A stretch of DNA of 44,724 nt, taken from an uncultured Bacilli bacterium. GTDB taxonomy: Bacteria; Bacillota_I; Bacilli_A; RF39; UBA660. Below are positions 9,610 to 18,313 of this stretch, one piece after another. Under the pieces are notes generated by a model. It was not told the DNA's origin and did not search any database. It worked only from the letters and a program-made list of their open reading frames with translations. Numbering within the stretch: the first letter of the stretch is position 1; the number at the start of each line of letters is the position of its first letter. Both the position numbers and the translations under genes were made by a program. The stretch lies in contig CANQVR010000002.1 of assembly GCA_947627375.1 (NCBI GenBank), positions 1 through 44,724 of the forward strand, given 5' to 3'.

Positions 9610-11379
9610 CTACATTTCCTTATTACAAGCTTTATTTTCTATTTCTTGTTTTAAAAGTTTTAAAAACTCTTCTTTCGTAACTGTCGTAGTTTCTTTTTTT
9701 CCATATAGACGATAACTGATAGTCTTATCATTTTTTTCGTTATCTCCAAGTATTAAAGTATAAGGAATTTTAGATGTTTGAGCTTCTCTTAAACGATAAC
9801 CTAGTTTCTCATTTCTATCATCTAATTTTACTCTAATATCATTATCACTTAAGAAATCAGCTATTTCTTTAGCGTATTCTCCTTGGTGTTCTGCAGATAC
9901 TGGCATTACTGCAACTTGAGTTGGTGCAAGCCAAGTTGGAAAAGCCCCTTTACATTCTTCGATAAAAAACGCTGTAAATCTATCGAATGTTCCAAAGATT
10001 GCGCGATGAATAACAACAGGAACTTGTTTTTCTCCATTACTCGCGATATATGATAAATCAAATCTTCTCGGTAATAAGAAATCTAACTGACATGTTGAAA
10101 GTGTAACTTCAGGTCCTACTGCTGGTTTAACTTCAACATCTAACTTAGGTCCATAAAAAGCTGCTTCACCAATAGCTTCAAAATAATCTATATCCATACT
10201 ATCCAATACTTGACGAAGAGTGTTTTCTGCTTCATTCCACATCTGATCATCATCAAAATATTTTTCAGTATCTTCAGGATCTCTAAGTGAAAGTCTAAAT
10301 TTATAATTAGTAATTCCAAAATCTTTATAAACATCTAAAATAAGTCCCACAACTTTTTTAAATTCTTCTCCTATTTGGTCAGGACGAACGAATAAGTGAG
10401 CATCATTTTGACACATACATCTAACTCTTTCAAGTCCTTTCACCGCACCACTTGCTTCATATCTAAAATCAGTTGCAGCCTCACCAATACGAATTGGTAA
10501 ATCACGATAAGAATGAAGACTATTTTTATATATTAACATATGATGTGGACAATTCATTGGACGAAGGACAAATTCTTCTTCATCAACTTTCATCACTGGA
10601 AACATATTTTCTTTATAATGATCCCAATGTCCACTAGTTTTATATAAATCTACTGTTCCAACACATGGAGTATAAACATGAAGATACCCAAGACGTCTTT
10701 CTTTATCATAAATATAATTTTCAAGTTGCTTTCTGATCAAAGCCCCATTAGGAAGCCATAAAGGCATACCAGATCCAACTAAATTATGACTCATAAAAAG
10801 TTCTTGTTCACGTCCTATCTTACGATGATCACGCATCTTACATTCTTCTAAATATTCTAAGTATTTATTCAAATCTTCTTCAGTCTCAAAACAAATACCA
10901 TATATTCTTTGTAGTACTTTGTTTTTAGAATCTCCTTTAAAATATGCTCCACTACTTTTAATTAATTTAAAATGTTTTAATTCTTTTACACTTTCAACAT
11001 GAGGTCCACGACAAAGATCAGTAAAATCTCCTTGAGTATAACATGATATTACTTCTTCGTCTTCGTTCATTCTCTCAATTAAATCAATTTTATATGGATC
11101 ATTTTTAAATCTTTCAAGAGCTTCACTTTTAGATATTTCTTCTCTTACAATTCTTTTTCCATCTTTAGCAATTTTTTTCATTTCTTTTTCTATTTTCGGT
11201 AAATCCTCATCAGTTAGAGTAATATCTCCTAAATCAATATCATAATAAAATCCATCTTCAATAACAGGACCAACCCAAAATAAAGCCTTTGGATATAAAT
11301 GTTTTACAGCTTGAGCAAGTAAATGTGCACAAGAATGATTAAGTACACTTAATTTTTCATCTTCTTTAATATTAATCAT
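9610..11379 (-). CDS. thrS: Threonine--tRNA ligase, lacking the N-terminal TGS domain
   Basis: 589 aa. It begins at the editing-domain motif HSCAHLLAQAVKHLYP and carries class II core motifs (FRYEASGAVKGLERVR, GPKLD) and an anticodon-binding domain. It is about 55 aa shorter at the N-terminus than Bacillus ThrS as I recall it. Confidence 0.95.
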   Translation of the reverse strand: MINIKEDEKLSVLNHSCAHLLAQAVKHLYPKALFWVGPVIEDGFYYDIDLGDITLTDEDLPKIEKEMKKIAKDGKRIVREEISKSEALERFKNDPYKIDLIERMNEDEEVISCYTQGDFTDLCRGPHVESVKELKHFKLIKSSGAYFKGDSKNKVLQRIYGICFETEEDLNKYLEYLEECKMRDHRKIGREQELFMSHNLVGSGMPLWLPNGALIRKQLENYIYDKERRLGYLHVYTPCVGTVDLYKTSGHWDHYKENMFPVMKVDEEEFVLRPMNCPHHMLIYKNSLHSYRDLPIRIGEAATDFRYEASGAVKGLERVRCMCQNDAHLFVRPDQIGEEFKKVVGLILDVYKDFGITNYKFRLSLRDPEDTEKYFDDDQMWNEAENTLRQVLDSMDIDYFEAIGEAAFYGPKLDVEVKPAVGPEVTLSTCQLDFLLPRRFDLSYIASNGEKQVPVVIHRAIFGTFDRFTAFFIEECKGAFPTWLAPTQVAVMPVSAEHQGEYAKEIADFLSDNDIRVKLDDRNEKLGYRLREAQTSKIPYTLILGDNEKNDKTISYRLYGKKETTTVTKEEFLKLLKQEIENKACNKEM

Positions 11380-11635: not shown

Positions 11636-12466
11636 TTATTTTAATTTCTTTTGATAAACTTTAGTTTTTGATGTATATGCCTCAAACATTAAATCTACTA
11701 AATTATCTATCTTTTCCATATCGATACTCGATTTTATTTCTTTTATAAAATAGTCTTCTAAAAATATTTTAATATCACTTTCTTCATAATTACTATTGTC
11801 TTTATATGAAAATGGCATACTTGTAAGTAAATTTTTAGCTATCGCAATATTTTCTTTTTTATCTATTAACCATTTTATTGGTTCTACTTTTACCCAATGT
11901 GTTTCTCCATATCTTGCTTCTTTTCCATTTGAAAATTGCCTATTACTATATATATTTAATTTATTTTCCATTCTTACATATTTATTATTTTGATAAATAT
12001 ACTCTTGATATTTTTCTTTTTCTTCTTTTAACATTGAAGTATAACTTTTTTTAGTTTCTTTAAGATTTCTTTTTTTATATAAATTTTCTAATTTCGTGTC
12101 TAAATATTTATCTACTATTGTCTTAGGATACTCTCCATATTCTACTATATCTCTATTGCTTTCTAATACTTTCTTAAGTTCTTCTTTATTTTCATAAATT
12201 TTAGTTAAATCAATCACCGGTCTAACTCCAAGACCAGTCATAAACGTATGACAAAAATTCATTTTACCAGTAAAATCGACATAAAACACATCATATACAT
12301 CATAAAAATTAAAAGTTCTAGTCCAATAATTTCCCATTCTATTATCATAGACTCCACCATTTATCATTTGATAAAAATCTGTTGCTTCTGCTTCTATTCC
12401 ATATTTTTTTAAAATATCCAAATTTTCTACTTGTTTTCTTGTAAGTAAAGTTATTTCATCTTTCAT
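11636..12466 (-). CDS. Array paralog A (CLec/DUF6273-like; most divergent, AT-rich loop)
   Basis: 276 aa. NYWTRTFNFYDVYDVFYVDFTGKMNFCHTFMTGLGVRPVIDL. Confidence 0.85.
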   Translation of the reverse strand: MKDEITLLTRKQVENLDILKKYGIEAEATDFYQMINGGVYDNRMGNYWTRTFNFYDVYDVFYVDFTGKMNFCHTFMTGLGVRPVIDLTKIYENKEELKKVLESNRDIVEYGEYPKTIVDKYLDTKLENLYKKRNLKETKKSYTSMLKEEKEKYQEYIYQNNKYVRMENKLNIYSNRQFSNGKEARYGETHWVKVEPIKWLIDKKENIAIAKNLLTSMPFSYKDNSNYEESDIKIFLEDYFIKEIKSSIDMEKIDNLVDLMFEAYTSKTKVYQKKLK

Positions 12467-12470
12467 ATGA

Positions 12471-13301
12471 CTACCTCACTTTCTGCTTTGCTTTCTTCTC
12501 TTCTGGCACATATGTCTCAAACATTAAATCTATTAAATTATCTATCTTTTCCGTATCTATACTTTTACTCGGCTCTATTTCTTTTATAAAATAATCTTCT
12601 AAAAATACTTTAATATCACTTTTCTCATAATCATCATCATTTTTATATGAAAATGGCATACATGTTAATAAATTTTTAGATAAGGCAATACTCGCATTTT
12701 TATCTATCAACCACTTTATTGGTTCTACTTTTAACCAATATGTTTTTCCTCTTATTGCTTTTCTTCTATTTATAAACTCACACTCTTCCCAATACATACT
12801 TGCTTCTTTTACTCTTATATATTTATTATTTTGATAAATATACTCTTGATATTTTTCTTTTTCTTCGTTTAACATCGAAGTATAACTTTTCTTCGTTCTT
12901 TTGAGTTTAACTTTTTGATATAATTCCTCTAACTTTTTTTCTAAATTTTCATCTACTACGGACTGAGGATATTCTCCATATTCTACTATATCTATATCAC
13001 TTTCTAATACTTTCCTTAGTTCTTCTTCATTTTCATAAATTTTAGACAACGATATTACTGGACGAACTCCATGAACAGGAAGAAAAAGAGCCCAGCACTC
13101 ACTATCAGAATCATCAACATAATAAACCTTAACCAATTTTTTAGCACATGGAGTTTTTGTCCAATAAGTTCCTGTTCCACAACAAATAAATCCATTTTGA
13201 ACTTGATAAAAATCAGTTAATCCAGCTATTTTCCCTTTTGTTTTTAAAACATCTAAATTTTCTGCCTGTTCTCTTGTAAGTAAAGTTATTTCCTCTTTCA
13301 T
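12471..13301 (-). CDS. Array paralog B (CLec/DUF6273-like; unrelated AT-rich loop)
   Basis: 276 aa. Its first 111 nt are identical to paralog D. Confidence 0.85.
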   Translation of the reverse strand: MKEEITLLTREQAENLDVLKTKGKIAGLTDFYQVQNGFICCGTGTYWTKTPCAKKLVKVYYVDDSDSECWALFLPVHGVRPVISLSKIYENEEELRKVLESDIDIVEYGEYPQSVVDENLEKKLEELYQKVKLKRTKKSYTSMLNEEKEKYQEYIYQNNKYIRVKEASMYWEECEFINRRKAIRGKTYWLKVEPIKWLIDKNASIALSKNLLTCMPFSYKNDDDYEKSDIKVFLEDYFIKEIEPSKSIDTEKIDNLIDLMFETYVPEEKKAKQKVR

Positions 13302-13305
13302 ATGA

Positions 13306-14136
13306 CTACCTCACTTTCTGCTTTGCTTTCTTCTCTTTTGGTACATAAGTTACAAACATTAAATCTATTAAATTATCTATCTTTTCCATATTTATACTTT
13401 TACTCGGTTCTATTTCTTTTATAAAATAATTTTCTAAAAATACTTTAATATCACTTTTCTCATAATCATTATCATTCTCATATGAAAACGGCATAGCGGT
13501 AAGTACATTTTTAGCTATCGCAATACTCTTTTTTTTATCTATTAACCACTCTATTGGCTCTACTTTTAACCAATATGTTTCTCCTTTTATTGCTTTTCTT
13601 CCATTTGCAAATTCACAATCATCCATAGATATATTTGCTTCTTTTACTCTTATATACTTATTGTTTTGATAAAAATACTCTTGATACTTTTCTTTTTCTT
13701 CTTTTAACATCGAAGTGTAACTTTTATTAGTTTCTTTAAGATTTCCTCTTTGATATAACCTTTCTAACTTTTTCTCTAAATCGCAATCTACTACTATCTT
13801 AGGATATTCTCCGTACTCTACTATATCTCTATTACTTTCTAATACTTTATTTAATTTTTCTTCTGATTTATAGATTTGAGATAACGGTATTACCGGACGG
13901 ACCCCAAAGTAGGAATCGTACACACTATCGTAGCTCACATAGCCGCAGCCTACATAGAATACGCAGAACGAGAAGTCAGAATACGGAGTTTTGGTCCAAT
14001 AGTCCCCTTTTCCATAATGAACATATCCTCCTTGAATTATATAAAAATCTGTTTCATCTGCTTCTATTCCATATTTCTTTAAAATATCTAAATTTTTTAC
14101 TTGTTTTCTTGTAAGTAAAGTTATTTCATCTTCCAT
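13306..14136 (-). CDS. Array paralog C (carries a partly decayed GC-rich variable cassette)
   Basis: 276 aa. Shares a block of about 205 nt identical to D downstream of the cassette. Confidence 0.85.
   Translation of the reverse strand: MEDEITLLTRKQVKNLDILKKYGIEADETDFYIIQGGYVHYGKGDYWTKTPYSDFSFCVFYVGCGYVSYDSVYDSYFGVRPVIPLSQIYKSEEKLNKVLESNRDIVEYGEYPKIVVDCDLEKKLERLYQRGNLKETNKSYTSMLKEEKEKYQEYFYQNNKYIRVKEANISMDDCEFANGRKAIKGETYWLKVEPIEWLIDKKKSIAIAKNVLTAMPFSYENDNDYEKSDIKVFLENYFIKEIEPSKSINMEKIDNLIDLMFVTYVPKEKKAKQKVR
13891..13986 (-). other. Variable cassette of paralog C (32 codons; GC-rich but with AT3 drift and a broken GC hairpin)
   Basis: Coding strand: CCG TAT TCT GAC TTC TCG TTC TGC GTA TTC TAT GTA GGC TGC GGC TAT GTG AGC TAC GAT AGT GTG TAC GAT TCC TAC TTT GGG GTC CGT CCG GTA. 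Confidence 0.6.
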
Positions 14137-14140
14137 ATAA

Positions 14141-14965
14141 CTACCTCACTTTCTGCTTTGCTTTCTTCTCTTTTGGTACATAAGTTACAAACATCAAATC
14201 TACTAAATTATCTATCCTTTCCATATTTATACTTGGTTTTATTTCTTTTATAAAATAATCTTCTAAAAATACTTTAACAACACTTTTTTCATAATCATTA
14301 TCATGTTCATATGAAAACGGCATAGCGGTAAGTACATTTTTTGCTATCGCAATTTTCGCATTTTTATCTATTAACCATTCTATTGGTTCTACTTTTAACC
14401 AATATGTTTCTCCTTTTATTGCTTTTCTTCCATTTGCAAATTCACAATCATCCATAGATATATTTGCTTCTTTTACTCTTATATACTTATTGTTTTGATA
14501 AAAATACTCTTGATACTTTTCTTTTTCTTCTTTTAACATCGAAGTGTAACTTTTATTAGTTTCTTTAAGATTTCCTCTTTGATATAACCTTTCTAACGTT
14601 TCATCTAAATCGCAATCTACTACTGTCTTAGGATATTCTCCGTATTCTACTATATCTCTATTACTTTCTAATATTTTATTTAATTCTTCTTCTGATTTAT
14701 AGATTTGAGATAATGGTATTACGGGGCGGACCCCAATGCCGGTGTCGTACGCGCCGTTGCTGCTCAAGCCGCCGGAGGTGACATAGAACACGCAGTACGA
14801 GTTGCCGGAATTCGGAGTTTTGGTCCAATAAATTCCTTTTCCAGCATCATCCAATCCATTTTGAACTTGATAAAAATCAGTTAATCCAGCTATTTTCCCT
14901 TTTGTTTTTAAAACATCTAAATTTTCTGCCTGTTCTCTTGTAAGTAAAGTTATTTCCTCTTTCAT
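14141..14965 (-). CDS. Array paralog D (carries a GC-rich NNC variable cassette)
   Basis: 274 aa. YWTKTPNSGNSYCVFYVTSGGLSSNGAYDTGIGVRPVIPL. Confidence 0.85.
   Translation of the reverse strand: MKEEITLLTREQAENLDVLKTKGKIAGLTDFYQVQNGLDDAGKGIYWTKTPNSGNSYCVFYVTSGGLSSNGAYDTGIGVRPVIPLSQIYKSEEELNKILESNRDIVEYGEYPKTVVDCDLDETLERLYQRGNLKETNKSYTSMLKEEKEKYQEYFYQNNKYIRVKEANISMDDCEFANGRKAIKGETYWLKVEPIEWLIDKNAKIAIAKNVLTAMPFSYEHDNDYEKSVVKVFLEDYFIKEIKPSINMERIDNLVDLMFVTYVPKEKKAKQKVR
14720..14815 (-). other. Candidate DGR variable region (VR) of paralog D, 32 codons
   Basis: About 64% G+C by hand count. NNC codons are interleaved with invariant scaffold codons. It ends in GGGGTCCGCCCC. Confidence 0.6.
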
Positions 14966-14969
14966 ATAA

Positions 14970-15800
14970 CTACCTCACTTTCTGCTTTGCTTTCTTCTCT
15001 TTTGGTACATATGTCTCAAACATCAAATCTACTAAATTATCTATCTTTTCTATATTTACACTTGCTTCTATTTCTTTTATAAAATTCTTATTTAAAAATA
15101 TTTTAATATCACTTTTTTCATAATCATTAGAATTATAACACGAAAAAGGCATATTGGTAAGTACATTTTTTGCTATAGCAATTTTCGCGTTTTTATCTAT
15201 TAACCATTCTATTGGTTCTACTTTTACCCAATATGTTTGTTCACTTTTTGCTTCTCTTCCATTTGCAAAATGATCATCCAAAAACACATATGAAATTCCT
15301 ACTCTTACATATTTATTATCATGATAACTATACTCTTGATATTCTATTTTCTTTTGTTTTAACATTGTTAATATAGAAGTATAATTTTTTCCGGTTTCTT
15401 TTAATTTACCCATGCTATATAATCTTTCTAAATTTTTTTCTAAATATTGATCTATGACTGTCTGAGGATATTCTCCATATTCTACTATATCTATATTACT
15501 TTCTAATACTTTATTTAATTTTTCCTCAGATTTATAAATTCTTGATAAGGGCATCACCGGACGTATTCCATGAGACTCAAAAGCAAGATCATGATTTATA
15601 TTAACATCATCATAGATAGCAAGCAAGAAACTTTTAGTATCTCCATCTGGAGTTTTGGTCCAATAAGGGCCTTTTCGATTATCAACATAACCTCCTTGAA
15701 TCATATAAAAATCAGTTGCTTCTGCTTTTTTTCCATATTTCTTTAAAATAGCTAAATTTTCTGTTTGTTCTTCTGTAAGTAAAGTTATTTCATCTTCCAT
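14970..15800 (-). CDS. Array paralog E (AT-rich loop)
   Basis: 276 aa. Confidence 0.85.
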   Translation of the reverse strand: MEDEITLLTEEQTENLAILKKYGKKAEATDFYMIQGGYVDNRKGPYWTKTPDGDTKSFLLAIYDDVNINHDLAFESHGIRPVMPLSRIYKSEEKLNKVLESNIDIVEYGEYPQTVIDQYLEKNLERLYSMGKLKETGKNYTSILTMLKQKKIEYQEYSYHDNKYVRVGISYVFLDDHFANGREAKSEQTYWVKVEPIEWLIDKNAKIAIAKNVLTNMPFSCYNSNDYEKSDIKIFLNKNFIKEIEASVNIEKIDNLVDLMFETYVPKEKKAKQKVR

Positions 15801-15804
15801 ATAA

Positions 15805-16638
15805 CTACCTCACTTTCTGTTTTACTTTCTTTTTCTTTGGTACATATACATCAAACATTAAATCTACTAAATTATCTAATTTTTTCGTATTTATACTTGA
15901 TTTTATTTCTTTTATAAAATATTTTTCTAAAAATATTTTAACATCACTTTTCTCGTAATTATTATTTGCTCCAAATGAAAATGGCATATTGGCAAGTACA
16001 TTATTAGCTATTGCTAACTTTTCTTTTTTATCTATTAACCACTTTATCGGTTCTACTTTTAACCAATATGTTTCTCCTTCCATTAATTCTCTTCCATTTG
16101 CAAAATGTTTACTATCATATACATCTAATTTATTTTCCATCCTGATGTATTTATTATTCTGATAAATATATTCTTGATAATTTATTTTTTGTTCATCAAA
16201 AAGTAAATTATAAACTTTCTCAGTTTTTAAAAGTATTTTTTTTCGATATAGGCTTTCTAACTTTTTCTCTAAATCGCAATCTACTATTGTCTTAGGATAT
16301 TCTCCATATTCTACTATATTTCTATTACTTTCTAATACTTTATTTAATTCTTCTTCAGATTTATAGATTTTAGATAACGGTATTACTGGGCGAACACCAA
16401 CACTGACGTTGTAGGCATAACTTATCTGCACATCACCATAGTTATCAACATGTAAGACATCGCTAAAATTACAGGAAGACGGAGTTTTTGTCCAATAGCA
16501 TCCTTTTCTTTCATCATCAAAATAAAATCCACCTTGAATTATATAAAAGTCAGTTACTTCTGTTTCCTTTCCATATTTCTTTAAAATATCCAAATTTTCC
16601 ACTTGTTCTTTTGTAAGTAAAGTTATTTCATCTTCCAT
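15805..16638 (-). CDS. Array paralog F (33-codon loop, intermediate composition)
   Basis: 277 aa. Confidence 0.85.
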   Translation of the reverse strand: MEDEITLLTKEQVENLDILKKYGKETEVTDFYIIQGGFYFDDERKGCYWTKTPSSCNFSDVLHVDNYGDVQISYAYNVSVGVRPVIPLSKIYKSEEELNKVLESNRNIVEYGEYPKTIVDCDLEKKLESLYRKKILLKTEKVYNLLFDEQKINYQEYIYQNNKYIRMENKLDVYDSKHFANGRELMEGETYWLKVEPIKWLIDKKEKLAIANNVLANMPFSFGANNNYEKSDVKIFLEKYFIKEIKSSINTKKLDNLVDLMFDVYVPKKKKVKQKVR

Positions 16639-16642
16639 ATAA

Positions 16643-17470
16643 CTACCTCACTTTTTGTTTTGCTTTCTTCTTCGGTACATATACATCAAACATCAAATCT
16701 ATTAAATTATCTATCTTTTCCATATCCATACTTTTACTCGGGTCTATTTCATTTATAAAATATTTTTCTAAAAACACTTTAATATTACTTTTCTCATAAT
16801 TATTATTTCCTCTATATGAAAATGGCATAGTAGTAAGTGCATTTTTAGCTATCGCAATTTTCGCATTTTTATCCATTAACCACTCTATTGGTTCTACCTT
16901 TAACCAATATGTTTCTCCTTTTATTGCTTTTCTTCCATTTACAAACTCATAAGCGTTATATATATTTGCCTCTTTTACTCTTATATATTTATTATTTTGA
17001 TACTTGTACTCTTGATACTTTTCTTTTTTTCTTTTTAACATCGAAGTATATCTTTTTTTAGTTTCTTTAAGCTTTCCATTTTGATATAAATTTTCTAACT
17101 TTTTCTCTATTTTTTCATCTACTACTGTCTGAGGATATTCTCCATATTCTATTACTTCAATACCATTAGATTTACTTATATTAAAGCCTTCTTTAGATTG
17201 ATAGATTTGAGATAATGGTATTACGGGGCGGACCCCATAGCTGGAGTCGTCCGCGTAGTCGTAGTTCACATCGCCGCCGGAGCCGACATAGAACACGTCG
17301 TACGAGTTATCGGAATCCGGAGTTTTGGTCCAATAAAATCCTTTTCCAGCAATACCCAATCCTCTTTGACTTTTATAAAAATCTGTTTCCTCTGCTTCCT
17401 TTCCATATTTTTTTAAGATATCTAAATTTTCTACTTGTTCTTTCGTAAGTAGAGTTATTTCATTTTCCAT
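16643..17470 (-). CDS. Array paralog G (carries a GC-rich NNC variable cassette)
   Basis: 275 aa. YWTKTPDSDNSYDVFYVGSGGDVNYDYADDSSYGVRPVIPL. Confidence 0.85.
   Translation of the reverse strand: MENEITLLTKEQVENLDILKKYGKEAEETDFYKSQRGLGIAGKGFYWTKTPDSDNSYDVFYVGSGGDVNYDYADDSSYGVRPVIPLSQIYQSKEGFNISKSNGIEVIEYGEYPQTVVDEKIEKKLENLYQNGKLKETKKRYTSMLKRKKEKYQEYKYQNNKYIRVKEANIYNAYEFVNGRKAIKGETYWLKVEPIEWLMDKNAKIAIAKNALTTMPFSYRGNNNYEKSNIKVFLEKYFINEIDPSKSMDMEKIDNLIDLMFDVYVPKKKAKQKVR
17222..17320 (-). other. Candidate DGR variable region (VR) of paralog G, 33 codons
   Basis: About 61% G+C and about 18% A on the coding strand, by hand count. It has the same scaffold and the same GGGGTCCGCCCC 3' end as D. Confidence 0.6.
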
Positions 17471-17474
17471 ATAA

Positions 17475-18313
17475 CTACCTCACTTTCTGCTTTGCTTTCT
17501 TCTTTTTTGGTACATATGTCTCAAACATTAAATCTACTAAATTATCTATCTTTTCCATATCTATACTTTTACTCGGCTCTATTTCTTTTATAAAATAATC
17601 TTCTAAAAATACTTTAATATCGCTTTTCTCATAATCATTATTTCCTTTATATGAAAATGGCATAGTGGTAAGTACATACTCAGATATAGCTATTTCTTCC
17701 TTCTTATCTATTAACCACTTTATTGGTTTTACTTCTATCCAATATGTTTTCCCATCTATTGCTTCTCTTCCAAACCCATAATGAAACTTAGAATGCTCTT
17801 TAAAAAGAACAGACTTTTTTACTCTTATATATTTATTATTTTTATATTTATATTCTTGATATTTTTTTCTTTTTCTTTTAACATTGAAGTATAACTTTTT
17901 TTAGTTTTTTTCAATCTATCTTCTTGATATAAATTTTCAAGTTCTTCTTCCAAATCCTCTTCAACTACAAACTGAGGATATTCTCCATATTCTACTGTTC
18001 CTATTTTACTTTCTAATACCTTATTTAATTCTTCTTCAGATTTATAGATTTGAGATAATGATATTGCGGGACGAACACCAAAGCTAGTATCACTTGAACC
18101 ACCTGTAATCACATCACCGCTAGGATAAGAATAAAAAACCTCATTCGAATTACTGATATATGGGGTTTTAGTCCAACATTCTCCTCTTCCAGAATAATAT
18201 GTTCCTTTTTGAACTATATAAAAATCAGTTATTAGATTTTCTTTTCCATAGCCTTTTAAAACATCTGATTTTTCTATTTGTTTTTTCGTAAGTAGAGTTA
18301 TTTCTTCTTTCAT
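17475..18313 (-). pseudogene. Array paralog H, split by a 1-nt frameshift in an A7/T7 run
   Basis: The span is 839 nt, not a multiple of 3. The N-terminal ORF 17825..18313 derails after SYTSMLKEKEK. The other frame reads on as YQEYKYKNNKYIRVK...WIEVKPIKWLIDK...MPFSYKGNN through to the normal C-terminus, which is the track ORF 17475..17663. Confidence 0.8.

Follow-up and report, generated by a model that had tools for sequence, protein, structure and literature searches.

An array of tandem paralogous genes lies in a 44.7-kb contig of an uncultured Bacilli bacterium (CANQVR010000002.1, positions 1 to 44,724; this whole stretch of DNA is called the window here). One of these genes, gene G (16643-17470, minus strand, 275 amino acids), contains a short G+C-rich patch, which is very probably the variable region (VR) of a target of a diversity-generating retroelement (DGR) whose template is located off the contig. 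To judge from the sequences, the retroelement origin of this cassette is strongly supported: copies of it in four genes share one frame and differ mostly at sites that were probably adenines in a common template, and homologous templates are found together with reverse transcriptase (RT) genes in related genomes. We infer that the organism has a template repeat (TR) and an RT of its own at another location, and that these act in trans.

A G+C-rich cassette in gene G

The patch occupies positions 17222-17320 of the minus strand, is 99 nt (33 codons) long and encodes the peptide PDSDNSYDVFYVGSGGDVNYDYADDSSYGVRPV. Its base composition (C31 G29 T21 A18) corresponds to 60.6% G+C and 18.2% A, in agreement with the values of about 61% and 18% given in a first reading of this DNA (hereafter the original prediction), whereas the coding strand of gene G outside the patch has 47.9% A and 26% G+C. 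The G+C content of third codon positions (GC3) is 0.84 in the cassette and 0.19 in the remainder of the gene. Stretches of 99 nt over the window have a mean G+C content of 27.9% (standard deviation 6.4), and values of 55% or above are reached at only two places, at 14.7 kb (paralog D) and at 17.2 kb (paralog G). The VR proper, the putative copy of the TR cDNA, extends over 17225..17320 on the minus strand, from CCG GAT TCC to GGG GTC CGC CCC.

The cassette ends in a G+C-rich 12-mer, which reads GGGGTCCGCCCC on the coding strand and GGGGCGGACCCC on the plus strand. Exact copies of GGGGTCCGCCCC are present twice in the window, at 14723-14734 in paralog D and at 17225-17236 in paralog G, where shuffled sequences gave an expectation of 0.02, and a copy with two mismatches is found at 13894-13905 in paralog C. 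Paralogs D and G also agree exactly over the 24 nt that follow the 12-mer (GTAATACCATTATCTCAAATCTAT). The exact 3' end that G and D were originally said to share was thus confirmed.

In an independent assembly from another sample (contig L002) the patch and both its boundaries are present and 100% identical. A further contig, independently assembled from another sample (L003), likewise spans both cassette boundaries without change, and its gene G is identical throughout.

Four cassettes with one frame and adenine-type variation

Two more cassettes of this kind, here called X2 and X3, were found in the same metagenome on another contig (L005; ENA ERZ27249389 NODE_6628), where the paralogs P0003 and P0002 both carry a G+C-rich cassette of 33 codons. 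The VR of paralog D (14723..14815, minus strand) has the frame and the 36-nt 3' end of G in 32 codons; a 3-nt deletion at codons 21/22 has changed AAT GTG to TTG. Alignment of the cassettes of G, D, X2 and X3 by codons gave the following invariant frame: TGG ACC AAA ACT CCG NNT TCC NNN NNC TCG NNC NNC GTG TTC NNT GTC NNC NCC NNC GGC NNT GTG NNC NNC NNC NNC GCG NNC NNC NCC NNC NNT GGG GTC CGC CCC GTA ATA CCA TTA.

Thirty-five sites differ among the four cassettes. They are distributed over codon positions 1, 2 and 3 as 19/14/2 and lie mostly in the NNC and NNT codons, whereas the corresponding numbers for the flanking coding DNA of the same genes, which served as control, are 11/10/11 upstream and 23/18/22 downstream. 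Identity between the four cassettes is 100% at the frame sites, and in the flanks it is 75-88% for most pairs. Adenine is present at 3 of the 47 invariant sites (codons 6-32), and at the variable sites it is the commonest base (56 of 139). The variation is therefore of the kind expected if it is restricted to positions 1 and 2 of AAY-derived codons set on an invariant frame; two sites that depart from it are considered below. A common frame together with such restricted variation would be expected if a single template, its adenines being read at random, had recently been copied into all four genes, and we know of no other process that gives such a pattern.

The cassette of paralog C has also lost a codon, one GGC of a GGC GGC pair. 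The deletions in D and C are different and both can be derived from a single 33-codon frame, so that the two separate TRs that had been considered for the 32- and 33-codon forms are not needed.

A homologous template and reverse transcriptase in related genomes

The template peptide deduced from the cassettes is WTKTPNSENSNNVFNVNTNGNVNNNNANNTNNGVRPV. When six-frame translations of the inferred template were run against the protein collection, two proteins were obtained, P0074 and P0075. P0074 is a truncated TnpB-like open reading frame (ORF) that reads into a template repeat and ends in ...SPNSSNSNNVFNVNNNGNVNNNNANNTNNAVRP, and in P0075 the C-terminal end of a reverse transcriptase reads on into ...NSNNVFNLNSSGYANNNNANNTNNGVRPAD. 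The contig encoding P0074 (L051, 90.8 kb) is chromosomal and also has a G+C content of about 27%. The gene order on it is tig, TR, a gene for a protein resembling MutS domain I (MutS_I-like), bAvd and a 386-amino acid RT (RVT_1), with the TR located 260 nt upstream of the MutS_I-like/bAvd/RVT_1 genes. The RT contains the motifs LPIGNMTSQ and YMDD. It shows 34% identity with the DGR RT of phage nd12 and is akin to the RTs of Faecalibacterium and Bordetella phages. Thirty-one of the 34 sites that vary between the cassettes coincide with adenines of the L051 TR, of which five are invariant in the cassettes (Fisher p = 1.2e-16).

The MutS-like/bAvd/RT gene set is also present in five further RT relatives; contigs with the complete set include L051, L055, L058, L060 and L064, and none of the related cassettes that were examined lacks bAvd or the MutS_I-like protein. 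In a sixth relative (L062) bAvd is present and the RT is split. TRs of the same family occur on L055-L057, L058, L060 and L064. On two of the related contigs, L058 and L057, there is a target in cis. The VR of L058 differs from its TR, over 113 nt, at 23 adenines and one non-adenine, and L057 is similar, with differences at adenines only. This adenine pattern identifies the related lineage as a bona fide DGR. The adenine randomization by a retroelement that was originally predicted from the window is thus supported by the pattern of variation, by the Pfam domain of the target (see below) and by the homologous TR, MutS-like, bAvd and RT cassettes of the relatives.

Some further features of the related loci were noted. 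No target gene is located within 10 kb of the L051 cassette, and the L051 TR is in frame with the end of a truncated IS605-family TnpB ORF (10001-10663; HTH_OrfB_IS605 N-terminus); a target in cis may have been lost by insertion of this element. Three tyrosine recombinase genes lie directly upstream of the MutS-like, bAvd and RT genes on L060 (1764-4867) and L063 (1-2735), and on L060 a TR-like sequence is found past the recombinase trio on the opposite strand. L051 (10640-10920) and L064 (130-420), whose RTs are 78% identical, also agree well in the spacer of about 280 nt that separates the TR from the MutS-like gene; this spacer is probably the structured part of the DGR RNA. Degenerate RT relatives were also seen: P0080 is devoid of the YMDD stretch, and the RT of P0167 (L062, 819-1937) is divided between three ORFs, at a syntenic site beside beta-lactamase2 and priA.

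The candidate homing site

The 12-mer and the 24 nt that follow it make up a 36-nt 3' site (17201..17236, minus strand) which is identical in G, D, X2 and X3. Paralog C departs from this site by three substitutions, of which two fall in the 12-mer and the third in the 24 nt, and the site is more degenerate in the A+T-rich paralogs. By analogy with the initiation of mutagenic homing (IMH) site of Bordetella phage BPP-1, we infer that the 36-nt sequence may act as an IMH-like site. The original prediction also described a GC hairpin at this place. The segment GGGG-TCCG-CCCC would form a stem of 4 bp with a free energy of about -4 kcal/mol, which is no better than that of shuffled sequences (z -0.02 to -1.3), and the hairpin was not substantiated. 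A better description of the segment is that the homology tract has a G+C-rich end here, comparable with the G+C-rich part of an IMH; the segment also codes for the conserved G-V-R-P motif.

An inverted repeat of 10 bp, AATACCATTA ... TAATGGTATT, whose arms enclose a loop of about 54 nt (17147-17220, minus strand), is found directly downstream of the VR of G and overlaps the conserved 24 nt. Nothing comparable to the distal arm is visible in D; the repeat is probably fortuitous and was set aside.

Proposed mechanism and alternative explanations

These features can be accommodated in the following scheme. A G+C-rich TR located outside the 44.7-kb contig would be transcribed, and the TR RNA would be copied by the DGR reverse transcriptase with misreading of the template adenines. 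The resulting cDNA would then replace gene G from about codon 50 to the G+C-rich GGGGTCCGCCCC end. One TR would serve all paralogs with an intact 36-nt 3' end, namely G, D and the two genes of the other contig, while paralogs with a mutated 3' end would escape rewriting and their cassettes would drift to the A+T-rich composition of the genome. Since the VR would encode the surface hairpin region of a ligand-binding domain, DUF6273 (see below), rewriting would change the binding specificity.

That one retroelement diversifies several paralogs in trans had been suggested at the outset. The co-targeting of the paralogs with the same 3' end stood up to the analysis. The involvement of a single retroelement acting in trans goes further than this; it would be consistent with the lack of a target within 10 kb of the L051 cassette and with the remote targets described for other DGRs.

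Several observations weigh against a DGR target with an off-contig template. No RT, Avd or TR was found in the window by BLAST with both cassettes, by scans for G+C-rich patches and for YxDD motifs, or by Pfam searches of nearly all ORFs of at least 100 amino acids, which otherwise revealed housekeeping genes. Exact-pattern scans of genome, metagenome and viral collections did not detect the cognate TR and gave chance matches only. In 596 Gb of representative genomes the exact frame had one match, in an SppA-like gene of Truepera, and in the JGI metagenomes one match, in a high-G+C actinobacterial ORF. In IMG/VR there was no match with the full pattern, and two shorter patterns gave 40 matches, all of them in phage contigs, mostly of 55-72% G+C, and with at most 44 of the 82 frame positions matching. 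Seven RT clusters were looked up, including that of L051 through the adjacent P0074; all of them originated from other studies, and none from the four samples in which this organism is present. The L051 TR has about 12 non-adenine differences from the cassette frame and is therefore a homolog rather than the template. Two of the sites that vary between the four cassettes are at odds with a simple adenine origin: position 3 of codon 8 (T/C) and position 1 of codon 22 (G/T), which is beside the deletion of D. Finally, the VRs of G, D, C and X2/X3 (P0002, P0003) are invariant in every assembly and cluster member seen, so that no diversification was observed.

The last of these observations bears on the alternative that survives best, which is nested within the preferred interpretation: the cassettes could have been written by a DGR that has since been lost or inactivated, and could now be static relics. 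Such fossil targets would account for the identity of the VRs in every sample and cluster member that was examined and for the failure to recover either an RT or a TR for this organism, and degenerate RTs are present in relatives (P0080, P0167/L062). However, the frame shows no decay at all in the four cassettes, while the abandoned cassettes of paralogs C, F and H have drifted to A+T (see below), which argues that writing was recent relative to the divergence of the paralogs. Moreover, the samples may share one clonal strain, and assemblies collapse minor variants. We consider a purely fossil state improbable, though it deserves to be taken seriously.

A much less probable explanation is that the patch is a G+C-rich segment of the homologous gene of an organism with higher G+C content, acquired by gene conversion or horizontal transfer and without reverse transcription. 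The sharp jump in composition would fit such an event, and the flanks are conserved well enough for homologous recombination. It would leave unexplained, however, why the cassettes have a common frame and common third positions when about 33 of their first and second positions, coinciding with TR adenines, are different, and the exact-frame scans of the 596 Gb of genomes, the JGI metagenomes and IMG/VR revealed no donor. An assembly or binning artefact, that is, a chimeric join to reads from a G+C-rich organism, had been allowed for in the original prediction and might be suspected at a coverage of about 5-7x (taken from the contig names), but it can practically be discounted, as both boundaries are the same in independent assemblies from at least three samples, two of them other than that of the window, the reading frame is kept, and the encoded WTKTP...GVRPV is the motif of the paralog family.

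Domain structure of the gene G product

Gene G matches the Pfam family DUF6273 with 30.1 bits and D with 31.6 bits (cut-off 23.5); residues 24-86 of G are aligned with profile positions 103-170 of 172. The scores of A, H and others are below the cut-off. Each paralog starts with a W-T-K-T-P ... G-V-R-P-V segment (residues 47-85), which matches the C-terminal part of DUF6273, and the VR of G corresponds to residues 51-82. G has no signal peptide.

In canonical DUF6273 proteins such as P0069, GEYPQ...EPIxW is followed by the S-x-I-R-x-W-L-N helix and then by WxxSP...GVRP. Gene G departs from this order: here WTKTP...GVRPV comes first, EYGEYPQ...KVEPIEWL second and NYEKSNIKVFLEKYF last. When the sequence of G was permuted, it matched profile positions 28-170 of DUF6273 across the junction between the C- and N-terminus. 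These alignments indicate that the gene G family is a circular permutation of DUF6273. A profile search of 1.84 billion representatives assigned at least 1111 clusters to the permuted family (E <= 1e-30), and some of its proteins contain two or three complete copies in tandem, as would be expected if the permutation arose by tandem duplication.

An AlphaFold2 model of G as a single chain, based on 47 homologs, had a mean predicted local distance difference test score (pLDDT) of 90.2 and a predicted template modelling score (pTM) of 0.85. In this model the VR comprises the strands 58-62 and 68-72 and the surrounding loops. Foldseek searches of the model against PDB and BFVD gave no global match, the sequential aligner being handicapped by the permutation; local matches were obtained with the IgA peptidase 9qa6 (94 columns, root-mean-square deviation 3.8) and with phage DUF6273 proteins. 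DUF6273 has been described as a C-type-lectin-like domain in which the VR forms a surface hairpin (PMC10743442), and by analogy with this description G would have a C-type-lectin-like fold. In 50,697 phage records no tblastn match to gene G was found that would point to a phage origin.

The paralog array and the probable decay of abandoned cassettes

Gene G is part of an array of eight head-to-tail paralogs on the minus strand (11636..18313) with a repeat period of about 835 nt. The paralogs are A (11636-12466), B (12471-13301), C (13306-14136), D (14141-14965), E (14970-15800), F (15805-16638), G and a disrupted H (17825-18313, with a remnant at 17475-17663), all in the same orientation. In H an N-terminal ORF of 162 amino acids with a low-complexity tail is accompanied by a separate 62-amino acid ORF for the C-terminus of the family, which indicates an internal deletion or a frameshift.

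The cassettes of these genes form a graded series. GC3 is 0.90 in D, 0.87 in X2 and 0.84 in both G and X3, and the rest of these same genes, which carry the G+C-rich cassettes, has values of 0.13-0.19. Paralog C is intermediate (0.63), F (0.35) and H (0.23) are lower, and A, B and E (0.17-0.19) are at background. The former VR of C (13894..13986, minus strand) appears to be decaying: the 12-mer is degenerate (GGGGTCCGTCCG), and the frame is still visible, with several third positions substituted, most of them towards A or T. In F and H just scattered frame codons are left.

The simplest reading of the GC3 series, for which composition is the sole basis, is that it separates recently written from abandoned cassettes. 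In the same way, it would be simplest to assume that all paralogs descend from a targeted ancestor and that only the copies with an intact 36-nt site are still rewritten, or were rewritten most recently. With a G+C-rich template and a genome very rich in A+T, the composition of a cassette would record how recently each paralog was rewritten.

Gene bodies and cassettes behave differently. In paralog E, window positions 15012-15456 differ from positions 12015-12453 of L003 (ERZ27249389) by about 100 differences in 440 nt, the C-terminal body having been exchanged for sequence of the type of another paralog, and the remainder of the 12.9-kb overlap between the window and L003, with all VRs included, is nearly identical. 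More generally, the C-terminal gene bodies of the paralogs differ between samples by recombination. Thus, recombination between paralogs reshuffles gene bodies while the cassettes stay fixed. Cluster members were also considered as possible VR variants and were rejected, the differences all being located outside the VR.

Relation to known systems

Targeting of DUF6273 by DGRs is known from gut phages, in which the VRs are located at the C-terminal part of this domain (PMC10743442, PMC11792537, bioRxiv 10.1101/2024.10.15.618418). The DGRs of gut Firmicute phages (those of the tentaclins, the Mtd-like targets of nd4/nd12, the Faecalibacterium prophages Lelie, Roos and Pioen, and Toutatisvirus) resemble the present system in the Pfam domain, in the position of the VR at the C-terminal end of the domain, in the AAC/AAT-rich TR and in having at least two targets per element. 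Even the N-terminal location of the VR, as in gene G, has already been reported for tentaclins. In contrast to the phage genes, the targets described here are chromosomal, lie outside a prophage and have neither Ig-like nor tail domains; at least eight paralogs are arrayed together, their domain is circularly permuted, and the element is not adjacent to them.

Remote targets of DGRs have been documented, and DGRs with MutS-like (MSL) accessory genes are known as a class (Wu et al. 2018, PMC5758913). The cellular DGRs of Treponema denticola, Legionella and lineage 4 (Wu et al. 2018) are similar in having far-off targets, several per TR, and the MSL-bearing cellular DGRs (PMC5758913) have the same set of MSL, Avd and RT genes as L051, L055, L058, L060 and L064. 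They differ in the target domain, which is a C-type lectin (CLec) domain of the FGE-sulfatase type in the cellular remote-target DGRs and DUF6273 here. The host, a spore-forming Firmicute of 27% G+C, and the head-to-tail array of targets with graded decay also set the present case apart.

The third group with which comparison is possible consists of DGR-diversified cytoplasmic CLec "antigen sensors" encoded next to MoxR ATPase and vWA genes in Thiohalocapsa PB-PSB1 and cyanobacteria, for which diversification in trans has been proposed (PMC10907252). Like the proteins studied here, these targets have no signal peptide. On L005 (1-5353) the two genes with G+C-rich cassettes are followed by genes for a MoxR-like AAA ATPase (402 amino acids), a 133-amino acid protein and a DUF2201 metallopeptidase/vWA-like protein (591 amino acids, with a Ser/Gln/Glu-rich repeat), and by the start of another paralog. 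By analogy, this layout, which resembles the published conflict loci with DGR-CLec and MoxR/vWA genes, may provide a lead for the function. The array in the window differs from the CLec MoxR/vWA systems: it is located between thrS and an M23 peptidase gene, there are no MoxR/vWA genes beside it, and its target proteins are without effector or adaptor domains.

DUF6273 as a DGR target, also with an N-terminal VR and with two targets for one element, remote and multiple targets, MutS-like accessories and cytoplasmic CLec proteins next to MoxR/vWA genes are thus all described already. What is particular here is the combination of a chromosomal array of at least eight paralogs, a permuted domain, a presumably remote element and a composition gradient that would record which copies are or have been targets. 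The known mechanism of DGRs is left unchanged by these findings. DGR targeting of DUF6273 would be extended by them from tail and decoration proteins of gut phages to a chromosomal family of circularly permuted paralogs without signal peptides in a low-G+C spore-forming Firmicute. With element and targets on different contigs, targets of this kind would be missed by detection pipelines that require a nearby RT. From the composition record, the gain and abandonment of targets could be read with unusual clarity.

A more speculative scheme, which we put forward with considerable reserve and regard as rather unlikely in its entirety, is that the paralogs of the array are lectin-like sensors of the cytoplasm whose repertoire is built up by "write-and-archive". 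A single remote TR, rich in G+C, would keep rewriting those paralogs in which the 36-nt site is intact; a useful variant would be frozen once the site mutates, would be kept as a paralog drifting towards A+T and would be reshuffled by C-terminal recombination; and the output of the sensors would go to a conflict system of the MoxR/vWA type, similar to that beside the second array. If this were true, the GC3 of a cassette would be a natural clock of the time since its last rewriting.

Other features of the window

The remaining genes of the window include those for PolC, ThrRS, a DnaI-like protein, an RNB exoribonuclease (RNase R-like), ComEC, FtsW/RodA, peptide deformylase, GlmS, CotJB and a CotJC-like Mn catalase, and one tRNA gene; a prophage module was not found in the window, which is ordinary chromosome of a spore-forming Firmicute with 27% G+C. 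The genes of the array are spaced by 4 nt, and each ends in the tail K-Q-K-V-R-stop (AAA CAA AAA GTG AGG TAG), which holds the Shine-Dalgarno sequence (ribosome-binding site) of the next gene (16639-16650 and all other junctions, 11636-17470). Since this signal lies inside the conserved tail, the C-terminal residues are constrained by translational coupling. On the plus strand, opposite the cassette of G, an Arg/Ser-rich ORF of 77 amino acids (17215..17448) is present, as had been noted originally; it is spurious, a by-product of G+C richness, and is open only as the G+C-rich cassette is free of stop codons. The cassettes on L005 are likewise overlain by off-frame ORFs.

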